A stretch of DNA of 63,796 nucleotides, counting the filler, from Globobulimina sp. (Eukaryota): NCBI GenBank assembly GCA_003354225.1. It is 38 parts of 38 records of this genome, joined end to end, with 100 filler letters (N's around TTAATTAATTAA, not from the genome) between each part and the next. Parts side by side here need not be neighbours in the genome. Positions count along the whole stretch, not along the records: positions 45,414 to 46,994 come from PIVH01014548.1; positions 47,095 to 48,675 come from PIVH01014549.1; 36 more parts are not named here. One strand, written 5' to 3'. The position numbers and the translations under genes are program-made. Positions 3,266 to 47,130 of the stretch are shown in pieces (position 1 is the stretch's first letter; the number at the start of each line of letters is the position of its first letter). The notes under the pieces were generated by a model. The model saw only the letters and a list, made by a program, of their open reading frames with translations, was not told where the DNA came from and did not search any database.

Positions 3266-4731
3266 ANNNNNNNNNNNNNNNNNNNNNNNNNNNNNNNNNN
3301 NNNNNNNNNNTTAATTAATTAANNNNNNNNNNNNNNNNNNNNNNNNNNNNNNNNNNNNNNNNNNNNGGGATTTAGAGCAAAATTTGACAGATGCTGGCTA
3401 TGAAAAAGGTAATGATTACTTTGTATCGTACGGTAACAACGATTATAATATTGGCGTACATATTCTTGTTATTTAGAATTCTTTCCGATTAACTGACATA
3501 CAGTTTTCCTGTTACTAACTTTTTTTGCCACGTGTACCTTGCCACCATCGCAGTTTAGTACAGTCCATCAAAAGAAATAGAAACTGATTTAAATACGACA
3601 TTTATATTATATGCATTCCACGTGCGATGTGATTATGATAACACTCAAAAATAACATGATTACTAATGAACTAAACCAATTAAAAACGATGATTGAGATT
3701 GGTATCAAAATATTACGCAGATTATATAATTAGGGAGAAATATATGACTATCCTCGCACTGCTGGAAGATGGTGGTCCCATTATCACCATTCTAAGCAAA
3801 CGGAAACTAAATCCTTTCCAACCATTCTAAGGAAAAGTATTTAGTATTCCCATTCATCAAATCATTCGCATTGATGCCATCCACGACATTCTCAGGTGTC
3901 TATAGTTTGAAACTGAAAAAATTGTTGGAACTGAAAAATCGATTTCAAACTAAAAAACATGTAAAATTACACAGAAAAACCATTCGGTTTATGCACGTAA
4001 TTCAAATGGAACAAAATTATACGTAGCAATAACAAATTAAGGCAAACCATGGCAAAGTCCTTCGATACCGTCGATAACGAGACGACGACATTAATCATGG
4101 CGAATTATGGCGAATTATCAATATCAATATCAATTATCAATTATTAAATTAAATCAATCAAAATTAAACTGTCCCAATGCCATTGTGACGGTACATGGGC
4201 GCAATGATCGTATGATCGAGTTGGCTTCGTACTGCTTCTGAAGCATTGCTTTGCATCTCGCTGTGTGTCCACTGAACCCGTTCATCGGTAGTTCGCTGCG
4301 CATGCACTCTTTTGAGGAGAGCTCGGCTTTGTAGATTGAGATAGTGCGGTCACCATCGAGTGATTGCGGGAGTTGTTGCCTATCGCATTGGCATTGGGCC
4401 ACAGAAGCGCCTGCTGCAAAGGCTATATTTCTAAGTCGTCCCTTCGGCCACTTACGATACGGTGAGCCGTCGTGATATTATTCACCAGATAGTATCCTCA
4501 AACCCTGGGGGGCTCCATGCAAATTTTTATTTACCCCATCACGTAATTTTTGAATGCAATCACATCCACAATGCAATGAATGCATATAATATCATATAAT
4601 ATAATATAACAGGATTTGTATAATGTATATGCTTTCAAACAATTTTTAATACAATTAAATTTGTCGTATAAAATCTGAGATTGTCCGTCCGATCGCAAAG
4701 TTTTCTTTTTAGTGAACAGGTAAAATACGCA

Positions 4732-10099: not shown

Positions 10100-10843
10100 A
10101 CAAAGGAGGAATGGAATCCCATTAAACAAGACGTTAAAAAAGGCGCATTGCGCTATTTTAAATATGGAGATTTACCGTTTAATTACGGATTCATTCCACA
10201 AACGTGGGAAGACCCTGCACATAACTCTCAATTCTCTGATAGCAGCGACTTATTTGGCGACAATGACCCGATTGATGTGGTTGAATTGTCAGATACTTCT
10301 CATATGTTGGAAAGAGGACTAATTATTCCTATAAAAGTACTTGCTGTGTTAGGCTTGATTGACGAAGGTGAGACTGATTGGAAAATTATAGGTTTACGAT
10401 GGAATCATCCGGAAATTAATAATATAAATAATATGCAGGATGCGAATCACATTTTGGGTCACAATGTAACGGATTTGATTGTGGATTGGTTTGAGAATTA
10501 TAAGGTGCCCGATGGCAAAGACATAAATCAGTTTAGCCATAATAAAGAATATCGCAGTTCGGAGGTGGCGGTGCAGATAATTGAGGAATGCCATCGTTCG
10601 TGGAATGATTTGATATTAGGTGGTGTGGTGGATAATGAATTGAATTTAACTTCAGTGACACAAAAATATTTGATTGCACAAGGGTTGACTTCAAGGAATA
10701 AGTTGGATGCTTTGCCCAACATTGAATATCCGCGATTGATTAATTGGCAACCGAGACCCATGCAAAAAGTGCAAACTATTGATCATTTACAAGAGGATTA
10801 TGATGCGGATGAACCATCGCCTGATCAGGAAAGGAAAACATGA
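10100..10843 (+). CDS. PPA: Family I soluble inorganic pyrophosphatase (eukaryotic type), 5' partial
   Basis: NPIKQDVKKG, NYGFIPQTWEDP, GDNDPIDVVE, DEGETDWK, YKVPDGK. Confidence 0.96.
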   Translation, partial: TKEEWNPIKQDVKKGALRYFKYGDLPFNYGFIPQTWEDPAHNSQFSDSSDLFGDNDPIDVVELSDTSHMLERGLIIPIKVLAVLGLIDEGETDWKIIGLRWNHPEINNINNMQDANHILGHNVTDLIVDWFENYKVPDGKDINQFSHNKEYRSSEVAVQIIEECHRSWNDLILGGVVDNELNLTSVTQKYLIAQGLTSRNKLDALPNIEYPRLINWQPRPMQKVQTIDHLQEDYDADEPSPDQERKT

Positions 10844-45313: not shown

Positions 45314-45500
45314 NNNNNNNNNNNNNNNNNNNNNNNNNNNNNNNNNNNNNNNNNNNNTTAATTAATTAANNNNNNNNNNNNNNNNNNNNNNNNNNNNNNN
45401 NNNNNNNNNNNNNACAATTCACATTTCATAAACACATCTGCATTTCAATTTTCATTTCATGAATATATTAGTGTCAAATGATCACTTTCACGGGTAGCAC

Positions 45501-46112
45501 TTATGTAGTGGATTTTTGTTGTGAGTTTTCTTTACTATTTTCTTGAGTTTCCGTTTTTTTATTAGCAGTTTCATCATCAGTATTATCATTGTCGCTATTA
45601 GTATTATTGTTTTTAACCTGAGTTCTTTTAGATCTACTTTCTAGTCCTTCTTTAATACCAAATAATTTATTTCCTAAAGCTCCCATTGTAAAAGCAATTA
45701 ACATTACTCCAATACCAATAATTTGTTTGATAGATACAGATTTTTTAAATATAAAATAAGCTAGTAATGTTGATATAATTACTGCACCATTGCTAATAGT
45801 TGTAATAATTCCGGGATTAATATCAGTTCCTAATTGGTATGCCCAATATAAAAGAACATTTCCTAGTAATGCACATATTCCAGCAAGAATAATTAGGCCT
45901 TTGTAATTATTTAAAATATTAGTTATACTAATAATAATATCATAATTTTTAGTTAAATAAATAAATGCTAAACCAAAAATTGCAAAAATACAATGAATAA
46001 TTGTATTAACAGCTGCAGAACCAAATCCTTGTACATCTAATAATTCATAGGCAATAGTTCCTTGAATACCAAATGATAATGCAGATAATATTCCAAAAAT
46101 CGACCAATTCAT
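45501..46112 (-). CDS. EamA/DMT-type transporter (single repeat plus polar linker), probably viral and possibly truncated
   Basis: Five TM segments; GNVLLYWAY...NPG...STLLAYFIFKKSVSIKQIIGIGVMLI is an EamA-like pattern. Confidence 0.8.
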   Translation of the reverse strand: MNWSIFGILSALSFGIQGTIAYELLDVQGFGSAAVNTIIHCIFAIFGLAFIYLTKNYDIIISITNILNNYKGLIILAGICALLGNVLLYWAYQLGTDINPGIITTISNGAVIISTLLAYFIFKKSVSIKQIIGIGVMLIAFTMGALGNKLFGIKEGLESRSKRTQVKNNNTNSDNDNTDDETANKKTETQENSKENSQQKSTT

Positions 46113-46134
46113 TTTTAAAATATAATTATATTTT

Positions 46135-46142
46135 AAAATTGA
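46135..46142 (+). promoter_or_regulatory. AAAATTGA Mimiviridae-type early promoter motif
   Basis: Exact octamer 31 nt upstream of the ATG at 46174. Confidence 0.65.
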
Positions 46143-46173
46143 ACCTAAAAATAAATTAGTAAAGAAATTAATA

Positions 46174-46452
46174 ATGTCAAGAGAAAATGATAGAGTTAGT
46201 CAATTAGAAGTTATTCAAAAAGAAGGAAAAGAATTATTTCGTAGGAAAAATCAAGATTATGGCGATGCTTTTGCTGATTATGGTGTTGTAGGAGTTTTAG
46301 TAAGAATGGGCGATAAAATTCGTAGATTTCAAAATATTAATTCAAAAGGAATTCAAGTGGTAAATGATGAAGGATTAAGAGATACTTTAATTGATCTACA
46401 TAATTACGCGGCTATGGCAATAATGCTTTTAGATGAAGATACAAAAAAATAG
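46174..46452 (+). CDS. DUF1599 / nucleotide-modification-associated domain 1 protein
   Basis: KNQDYGDAF, VRMGDKIRR, DEGLRDTLIDLHNYAAMAIMLL. Confidence 0.88.
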   Translation: MSRENDRVSQLEVIQKEGKELFRRKNQDYGDAFADYGVVGVLVRMGDKIRRFQNINSKGIQVVNDEGLRDTLIDLHNYAAMAIMLLDEDTKK

Positions 46453-46483
46453 AAAAATATTAAAATGATTTCTATATATATAT

Positions 46484-46987
46484 ATGAATCATATATATCA
46501 ACAGTTGATTCATTTTTTATTTAGTAAAAAGAAGATAGCATCATATAATGATTTTTTTAATCAGAAAGTTATAAAATTTGTTTTAATACATTGTTCTTGG
46601 ATAATTTTATTTGCAATAATTTATTATATAATAGATATTTGGATCGCTATGCATCCCGAAATAGCAAAAAAATATTTTATACCAAAATGGGTTTTAGAGT
46701 CAAAATCCGAAAAAACAAAAAAAGTTGTAGATGAAGAAATAAATAGATCAAAACCATTTTTTTATCATTTATATTTTGCGGCGTTAACACAGACAACAGT
46801 AGGTTATTCTGGACAGGTAAATAGTGATGGTATAACTATACCAATTTTGATGAAAGATTATATTTTTCAATTGGCAAATTTTTTACAACTGGTAACAATA
46901 TTTACAACACCAGTAATAGCATTATTTTGGCACCCAGATTCAGGAGAATTTTTCTTTTGGAAGAAAAAGAAAAAAAAATTGAAATAA
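46484..46987 (+). CDS. Minimal two-TM potassium-channel-like protein (viral Kcv type)
   Basis: TM1 IILFAIIYY, pore helix HLYFAALTQTTVGYS, TM2 LANFLQL. Confidence 0.8.
   Translation: MNHIYQQLIHFLFSKKKIASYNDFFNQKVIKFVLIHCSWIILFAIIYYIIDIWIAMHPEIAKKYFIPKWVLESKSEKTKKVVDEEINRSKPFFYHLYFAALTQTTVGYSGQVNSDGITIPILMKDYIFQLANFLQLVTIFTTPVIALFWHPDSGEFFFWKKKKKKLK
46975..46982 (+). promoter_or_regulatory. Second AAAATTGA motif, probably for the next (unseen) gene
   Basis: Exact octamer overlapping the last codons of the channel ORF. Confidence 0.5.
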
Positions 46988-47130
46988 AATTTTTNNNNNN
47001 NNNNNNNNNNNNNNNNNNNNNNNNNNNNNNNNNNNNNNTTAATTAATTAANNNNNNNNNNNNNNNNNNNNNNNNNNNNNNNNNNNNNNNNNNNNATTAAT
47101 AATATCTATTTCGAATACATTCAATTATGA

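Follow-up and report, generated by a model that had tools for sequence, protein, structure and literature searches.

Does a short, very AT-rich contig that was deposited with the genome assembly of a protist belong to that protist, or is it giant-virus DNA that was sequenced along with it? The window (the whole stretch of DNA analyzed, 63,796 bases from assembly GCA_003354225.1 of Globobulimina sp.) consists of 38 contigs of 1580–1583 bp, arranged by descending length and separated by spacers of the form N44-TTAATTAATTAA-N44. The contig of interest is one of these 38, occupies positions 45414-46994 (1581 bp) and carries genes for an EamA/DMT transporter, a DUF1599 protein and a small channel-like protein. 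A first-pass annotation had assigned it to a giant virus of the Imitervirales type, and this assignment is supported by its identity to a metagenome contig, by related DUF1599 loci, by capsid genes in a relative and by the position of a promoter motif. We conclude, with a probability of about 0.78, that the contig is a genome fragment of an uncultured giant virus of aquatic habitats, within the Nucleocytoviricota most likely a member of the Imitervirales, and that it was assembled together with DNA of a poorly sampled protist.

Giant-virus origin of the contig

Judged by its sequence relatives, contig 45414-46994 is giant-virus DNA. Positions 45504-46994 align at 97.1% nucleotide identity over 1513 aligned columns (1491 bp of the window) with a metagenome contig of 98.5 kb (L082), the aligned stretch being the last 1.5 kb available of L082. 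The same three genes are found there in the same order, with proteins that are 97.5% (transporter), 100% (DUF1599) and 97.6% (channel) identical to those of the window. A second relative, the IMG/VR locus L081 from an 83-kb record, has an EamA gene with 81% protein identity and 90.8% nucleotide identity over 510 nt, and the alpha/beta-hydrolase gene adjacent to EamA is also common to L081. The profile Capsid_NCLDV, named after the nucleocytoplasmic large DNA viruses (NCLDV), gives three matches in the record of L081, one of them above the cut-off, and one match above the cut-off in the record of another DUF1599 relative; in the third record searched there is none. The three capsid-like matches in the record of L081 (L086, 1474-3957 on the minus strand, and L087) lie within about 6 kb, and one of them is part of an open reading frame (ORF) of 827 aa, about twice the length of the capsid chain of PBCV-1. 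This suggests tandem, enlarged capsid paralogues in the record that shares the EamA gene.

The DUF1599 gene connects the contig to a larger set of viral sequences. Its relatives account for 118 of the 127 candidate stretches from the viral_contigs collection, and 80 of these 118 IMG/VR relatives (L001-L080) were kept for analysis. Their proteins are 58–77% identical to that of the window, and half of the contig names (40/80) contain ‘GVMAG’, a tag that we take to stand for giant-virus metagenome-assembled genome. Directly downstream of DUF1599, 22 of the 81 related loci have a gene for an mRNA cap guanine-N7 methyltransferase, which indicates a virus of eukaryotes. This succession of DUF1599 and cap methyltransferase is the commonest arrangement in the giant-virus relatives and is absent from the lineage of the window.

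The composition of the contig sets it apart from its neighbors. It has the lowest GC content of the 38 contigs (0.253), the other 37 ranging from 0.262 to 0.466 with a median of about 33%. The GC content at third codon positions (GC3) amounts to 0.098, 0.118 and 0.173 in the three ORFs, versus 0.239–0.567 (median 0.336) in the longest ORFs of at least 200 aa from 31 other contigs, which agrees with the A/T third-codon bias noted earlier. The close packing of the three ORFs is likewise evident from their coordinates: 61 bp (46113-46173) separate the first from the second and 31 bp (46453-46483) the second from the third. The viral relatives L081 and L082 have a GC content of 23–25%; coding sequence takes up about 85% of the relatives, and TAA is their predominant stop codon. 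In a tblastx comparison of all 38 contigs with the viral loci, contig 45414-46994 is the only one with a match.

EamA and DUF1599 proteins are common in bacteria and phages, and one channel homologue is labeled as a ‘Balneola sp.’ metagenome-assembled genome (MAG), so the contig might come from a phage, from a bacterium with AT-rich DNA or from an atypical region of the protist's own genome. However, the best phage DUF1599 protein reaches only 41% identity versus 58–77% for giant-virus contigs, the relatives carry NCLDV capsid genes as well as the mRNA cap methyltransferase, and the protist contigs have a much higher GC3. The ‘Balneola’ contig (L083) swings in GC content between 0.20 and 0.63 along its 6.8 kb and is probably a chimeric or misbinned contig and no bacterial homologue. 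We regard a bacterial, phage or protist origin as extremely improbable.

The first-pass annotation had further proposed that the cluster of transporter, DUF1599 and channel genes could mark an uncharacterised lineage. The cluster is conserved as a whole only in the closest relative L082 and partly in the distant relative L084, which keeps the DUF1599-channel pair (3626-4330) with 77% and 47% protein identity, respectively. An EamA or channel gene near DUF1599 was found in none of the 80 loci, within the locus stretches considered. The lineage is uncultured, as no cultured or named virus appears among the DUF1599 and channel homologues, which bear Tara gene tags, the name ‘viral metagenome’ or, in one case, the ‘Balneola sp.’ MAG label; but it is already represented in IMG/VR and in metagenome data from 16 studies.

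Early-promoter-like motif and order-level placement

Two copies of the octamer AAAATTGA had been reported on the plus strand of the contig, at 46135 and 46975. Both are present, and we found a third at 45445 on the minus strand. Counted over the whole window, the motif occurs 13 times versus 18.1 times expected from shuffles. The contig itself has three copies versus 0.68 expected, which is just a weak excess, as this number is reached or exceeded in 141 of 5000 dinucleotide shuffles, and its virus-matching part has two versus 0.62 expected (reached in 649 of 5000 shuffles). The raw counts in the relatives are seven versus 4.5 expected (L082) and eight versus 5.8 expected (L081).

The position of the motif is more informative than its number. 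For 1300 ORFs of at least 100 aa in 81 related loci (1.26 Mb), motif copies on the same strand were collected from the 150 nt that precede the ATG. Of the resulting 201 pairs of motif and ORF, 166 have the motif 31–70 nt upstream, with a peak of 69 pairs at 41–50 nt, versus 38 of 71 pairs in this range for the reverse-complement control. Seven other AT-rich octamers show a flat distribution, save for a small peak of the one-mismatch variant TAAATTGA. In L082, four out of seven copies are located 37–46 nt upstream of an ATG. The copy at 46135 precedes the DUF1599 start codon by a distance (39 nt) that is the same in L082 (9630 to 9669). The copy at 46975 has its L082 counterpart at 10492, followed by an ORF that starts at 10538 (46 nt), and so it probably serves as promoter for a following gene that is absent from the contig of the window. 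The presumed enrichment of AAAATTGA is thus not seen in the raw counts but is clear from the positions upstream of ATGs in the 81 related loci.

A strictly conserved motif, highly prevalent in early promoters, is listed as apparently unique to Mimiviridae in a review (PMC6163669), from which we took its prevalence in promoter regions as a criterion for Imitervirales (Mimiviridae sensu lato); the 166 of 201 pairs at 31–70 nt correspond to this description. It is mainly because of this position-specific occurrence upstream of the genes of the relatives that we place the virus most likely in the Imitervirales.

Two palindromes accompany the motif. The first (46108-46143) has arms of 18 + 18 nt that are 94% complementary, and it covers both the start codon of the EamA gene and the AAAATTGA copy of the divergent DUF1599 gene. 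On the minus strand, the left arm of this palindrome has the sequence AAAAATGA, which differs from AAAATTGA by one mismatch. The second (46465-46492), located after the DUF1599 stop codon, is rich in (TA)n; it may be compatible with a hairpin at the 3'-end of a mimivirid transcript, but could also have arisen by chance in a (TA)n sequence.

Truncated transporter gene and breakpoint

The transporter ORF contains a single EamA repeat at residues 3-141 (31.4 bits versus a cut-off of 28.2; Pfam E-value 2.6e-7), followed by a low-complexity linker and a stop codon. Over its 203 aa it matches the first part of a 382-aa ORF of L082 with two EamA repeats, and two repeats are also present in the 350-aa transporter ORF of L081. 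The organization of EamA/DMT transporters (PF00892), two repeats with about 10 transmembrane helices in a single chain, is hence seen in both relatives but not in the window, where no second repeat was found in any frame downstream of the ORF. The truncation coincides with a breakpoint at about 45499-45504, directly after codon 203, where the join creates a TAA codon. The alignment to L082 loses similarity to the left of 45504. In contrast, a 2169-nt contig from sequencing run X1 that covers 45504-46162 continues with L082-type sequence at this very position, and none of the four runs examined covers 45414-45466. For these reasons, we consider the join to be specific to the assembly of the window. 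The outer 90 bp gave only chance matches of 12–22 nt (E-value at least 0.33) in a blastn-short search that covered 87 loci and all 37 remaining contigs of the window. They may be an assembly chimera, may result from a rearrangement within the virus strain at hand or may mark a junction with non-viral or host DNA.

The last of these options would make the contig part of an endogenous giant-virus element in the nuclear genome of the protist, with a virus-host junction at about 45503 that truncates the transporter. The abrupt end of the similarity to L082 is in line with such a junction, as is the continuation of the X1 contig with L082-type sequence, which sets the join in the window apart. The GC content of the 90 bp (30%) is closer to the median of the other contigs (about 33%) than to that of the viral part (25%), and the join yields an immediate stop codon, as would a random insertion or deletion. 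However, the 90 bp are too short to be assigned, match none of the 37 other contigs and hold a copy of AAAATTGA, a motif whose density per base in viral loci is, by our estimate, about double that in the other contigs. Moreover, the other 1491 bp share 97% identity with free-living metagenome sequence and show intact ORFs and no decay, and contig ends in short-read assemblies are often chimeric. Integration is, in our judgment, improbable. The contig most probably stems from a separate viral molecule in the sample, whether from virions, from infected or ingested material or from an infection of the cell, and probably not from a chromosome of the protist.

The transporter gene is represented by its first half, cut by the breakpoint 90 bp from the end of the contig. 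In the relatives, it is accompanied by the alpha/beta-hydrolase gene and by glycosyltransferase genes, of the families GT2 (twice) and GT11 in L082, and GT10 and a weak GT47 match in L081. This neighborhood suggests a link between the transporter and glycan synthesis.

DUF1599 gene

The DUF1599 protein matches its Pfam family (PF07659) with 42 bits (cut-off 25), covering profile positions 1-60 of 61. It has 3750 homologues at an E-value of at most 0.001, the best of which are metagenomic proteins with 71–99% identity. A search against PDB sequences returned no match; NCBIfam yielded nothing useful. An AlphaFold2 (AF2) model with a predicted local distance difference test score (pLDDT) of 79 consists of three long helices and a hairpin. 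A Foldseek search of this model against the PDB produced no match at an E-value of at most 0.001, while the best fold match is AF_0060 (PDB 2p06_B) with a Z-score of 8.3 and a root-mean-square deviation of 3.0 Å over 83 of 88 residues, the next match having a Z-score of 6.5. AF_0060 is grouped with the all-alpha nucleoside triphosphate pyrophosphatases (MazG-like). The MazG structure 1vmg itself is far down the Foldseek list (TM-score 0.41).

Seven residues (E17, D28, D31, R44, D47, E66, and D74) are invariant among 36 aligned sequences, and the Pfam name of the family is ‘nucleotide modification associated domain 1’. Because of these invariant acidic and basic residues and the domain name, we infer that the protein, a small three-helix protein presumably expressed under the early-promoter-like AAAATTGA, would act on the nucleotide pool or on nucleotide modification early in infection; this is the least secure of the three gene readings.

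Channel-like protein

A family profile built for the third gene has 41 cluster representatives at an E-value of at most 0.001, mostly 105–145 aa long. The motif TQ(T/S)T(V/L/I)GY is kept in all 40 aligned sequences. Within this set of relatives, Pfam matches at an E-value of at most 0.01 are found for IRK (23/40) and Ion_trans_2 (17/40), and the profile retrieves 133 PDB sequences at an E-value of at most 1, of which the 60 listed are all potassium channels or constructs derived from them. No relatives of the channel gene were found in the viral_contigs collection, neither with the single protein nor with the alignment, and three loci were found in the metagenome_contigs collection. A truncated copy with 76% protein identity lies at 1090-1416 of the 6826-bp ‘Balneola sp.’ MAG contig L083. 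Clusters of K+ channels and Nucleocytoviricota in the ESM Atlas score 0.84–0.86, below the level of 0.9, and serve as leads only.

The AF2 model of the channel (pLDDT 82.8) has helices at residues 21-56, 92-104 and 126-148 and the filter at 102-110, in the order outer helix, helical insert, pore helix, filter and inner helix. Two transmembrane helices thus flank a pore helix and filter in this model. Among the top 50 structures in VIA-align, almost every one is the pore domain of a tetrameric cation channel, with Z-scores of 6.3–7.9 that are middling for helical proteins. Modeled in four copies, the protein scores 0.82, whereas the best control scores 0.00; at least 80% of the contacts are common to the runs, the partner pLDDT is at least 69, and the interface comprises the filter (102-112), the pore helix and the inner helix. 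The mark applied is reached by 21 out of 30 proteins whose solved structure is a pair of one chain and by none of 23 that were solved as single chains, a calibration made with two copies and not with four. The channel is accordingly only predicted to form a tetramer whose filters would line a central pore. Tetramers of potassium channels are textbook structures, and the result for the homotetramer may reflect the model's memory of solved K+ channel tetramers, in which case it conveys likeness only.

The filter departs from that of known potassium channels. PMC7650704 defines the motif as TxxTxGYG, with two glycines; the window and L082 both read TQTTVGYSG. The residue after GY in the 40 sequences is G (14), A (13), S (6), N (4), T (2), or R (1); serine occupies this position in the window and in L082, and alanine or threonine in the sequences closest to them. 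Contigs of runs X1 and X5 read G at position 46808 where the window reads T. By our own reading of the codon, this variant affects the same filter residue, which would be changed to alanine. The filter of the L084 channel is the canonical TLGYGG, which implies that the replacement by serine or alanine arose within the lineage of the DUF1599-channel pair. Neither TVGYSG nor TVGYAG occurred in the papers listed by a literature search, none of which dealt with channels and whose supplements were not covered.

By analogy with other algal-virus channels, the protein would be a putative cation channel in a host or viral membrane, with a pore-module architecture, a tetrameric assembly and an uncertain K+ selectivity. 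A bolder possibility, which we put forward tentatively and with more doubt than conviction, is that it represents a widespread branch of giant-virus K+ channels, conserved and predicted to be tetrameric, in which the second glycine of GYG is freely replaced (26/40). If this is true and the channels conduct, their filter chemistry would be one that is not described for K+ channels, for instance with altered or lost K+ selectivity. The family would then offer natural experiments on the role of this glycine.

Weighing the assignment

Several observations weigh against the assignment to a giant virus of the Imitervirales with three functional genes. There is no hallmark gene, whether for the major capsid protein, PolB, the A32 ATPase, VLTF3 or RNA polymerase, on the 1.58-kb contig itself, and PolB, A32 and Rpb2 were not found in the records of three relatives, which are 7–39% complete; the order-level placement is for this reason drawn from the promoter motif and the composition and not from a phylogeny. 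In neither the window nor L081 nor L082 do the raw counts of AAAATTGA amount to a significant enrichment. No comparison made identifies the first 90 bp as viral, and they may represent a junction with non-viral DNA. The transporter ORF is half a gene, judging by its full-length counterparts, and a working transporter in this copy is unlikely. The channel ORF alone reaches 12.7 bits for Ion_trans_2, below the cut-off of 22.5, its model gave no Foldseek match in the PDB at an E-value of at most 0.001, and its filter is missing the second glycine of GYG. Finally, DUF1599 is not diagnostic of an order: it occurs in phages and, according to a gene table in PMC12085832, in the phycodnavirus CpV-BQ1.

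This last point leads to a giant virus of another order, such as the phycodnavirus-like Algavirales. Both DUF1599 and miniature K+ channels are known from phycodnaviruses, as PMC12085832 and PMC7650704 report. RNA polymerase, PolB and A32 genes, moreover, were not found in the incomplete fragments of the relatives, and the 827-aa capsid-like ORF matches only PBCV-1 capsid proteins among PDB sequences. These sole matches, however, carry no order-level information, as the PDB may hold no close mimivirid capsid. The positional peak of AAAATTGA in the relatives is a feature listed as apparently unique to Mimiviridae in PMC6163669, and the GC content of L081 and L082 (23–25%) fits that of the mesomimivirid CpV-BQ2 (25%) and not that of the phycodnavirus CpV-BQ1 (32%), both values being taken from PMC12085832. 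We therefore consider an algaviral origin unlikely and retain the Imitervirales as the most likely order.

Features of the contig and its neighbors in the window

The features of the contig are listed in Table 1. Any feature that seems to cross a spacer in the window is an artefact.

Table 1. Features located on contig 45414-46994, in window coordinates.
Feature	Position	Strand	Remarks
Unmatched contig end	45414..45503		90 bp, GC 0.30, differs from viral relative
AAAATTGA copy within the unmatched 90 bp	45445..45452	-	31 nt to contig end; no gene assignable
EamA/DMT transporter, N-terminal half, 203 aa	45501..46112	-	Pfam EamA; identity to L082 and L081
Palindrome, 36 nt	46108..46143		Divergent intergenic region; AAAATTGA in right arm
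AAAATTGA, early-promoter-like motif	46135..46142	+	39 nt upstream of DUF1599 ATG
DUF1599 protein, 92 aa	46174..46452	+	Pfam 1.2e-10, phrog_1485 2e-20
AT-rich palindrome	46465..46492		Between DUF1599 stop and channel start
Channel-like protein, 167 aa	46484..46987	+	Two predicted transmembrane helices, one pore loop, filter TQTTVGYSG
AAAATTGA in last codons of channel gene	46975..46982	+	L082 equivalent 46 nt upstream of next ORF

By their translations, other contigs of the window are eukaryotic and encode a hexokinase, a P450, an inorganic pyrophosphatase and a chaperonin subunit, of which the hexokinase was confirmed by search. It is 71% identical to a EukProt entry and at most 40% identical to the named matches checked among those listed, which indicates that the assembly is that of a poorly sampled protist. 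One further contig (57177-58756; GC 0.262, GC3 0.26) is also very AT-rich and is open throughout (526 aa). Its protein gives the impression of a repeated helical-repeat type, similar to pentatricopeptide repeats, and has no tblastx match to the viral loci.

The ciliate genetic code (table 6, with TAA and TAG read as glutamine) was considered for the protist contigs and rejected, despite the many longer ORFs that it produces, and the standard code was assumed. Eleven contigs have longest frames of 216–527 aa without any TAA or TAG, and the extra ORF length under table 6 is mostly antisense or downstream junk. The C-terminal part of the P450 (10950-11681, minus strand) contains one in-frame TAG in a conserved region (residue 51 of the stretch translated), although other long ORFs of the assembly are free of TAA and TAG; the codon may stem from an error in sequencing, lie in a tiny intron or be a sign of a pseudogene.

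Distribution and implications

Words sampled from the contig are held in whole or in part by 20 run entries from 16 studies, and 16 of these entries hold at least half of them. The runs are labeled as aquatic, marine, seawater, sediment and sponge metagenomes. The virus lineage is widespread, already present in public data and uncultured. An RNA run prepared as an oligo-dT library (X17) yields contigs on parts of all three genes with 95–99% likeness; they are no proof of expression, as the strand is not shown and carry-over of DNA is possible.

The find is real but fairly ordinary. The presence of giant-virus DNA among protist contigs gives a lead, and no more than that, to the host of an uncultured marine mimivirus-like lineage, and 1.6 kb alone are compatible with infection, ingestion or carry-over. 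Users of the assembly should flag contig 45414-46994 and not count it as part of a protist gene set. Two details are noteworthy, namely the breakpoint that swaps the second half of the transporter for 90 unrelated bases and the non-canonical filter of the channel family, in which TVGY is followed by A, S, T, or N.

Comparison with known systems

The closest counterpart of the contig, L082, agrees with it in the motif positions; its EamA gene is full-length, whereas the copy in the window halts at residue 203. L081 shares the pair of EamA and alpha/beta-hydrolase genes with L082 and has no DUF1599 or channel gene beside EamA. At a higher level, the relatives of the window resemble the Imitervirales (Mimiviridae sensu lato) in the fixed distance of AAAATTGA to the start codon, a GC content of about 25%, tightly packed intronless genes and TAA stop codons.

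The DUF1599 protein of the window belongs to the same Pfam family as its phage counterparts, at 41% identity in the best case. Its model resembles the uncharacterised archaeal protein AF_0060 (2p06) with a Foldseek TM-score of 0.66, at a sequence identity of 17%.

The channel can be compared with Kcv of chloroviruses and with Ktv1 of Tetraselmis virus 1 (79 aa), which, like the predicted channel of the window, have a pore helix and a filter between two transmembrane helices and lack cytosolic domains. The likeness extends to aromatic residues upstream of the filter and to the TxxTxGY core (PMC7650704). In the same paper, all four published mimivirid candidates keep GYG, and only the 79-aa Ktv1 among these four is shown to conduct. 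The channel of the window differs from Kcv and Ktv1 in its length of 167 aa, which is twice theirs, in a helical insert of about 35 residues before the pore helix, in a lysine-rich tail, and in a filter in which the second glycine of GYG is a serine and no aspartate follows.

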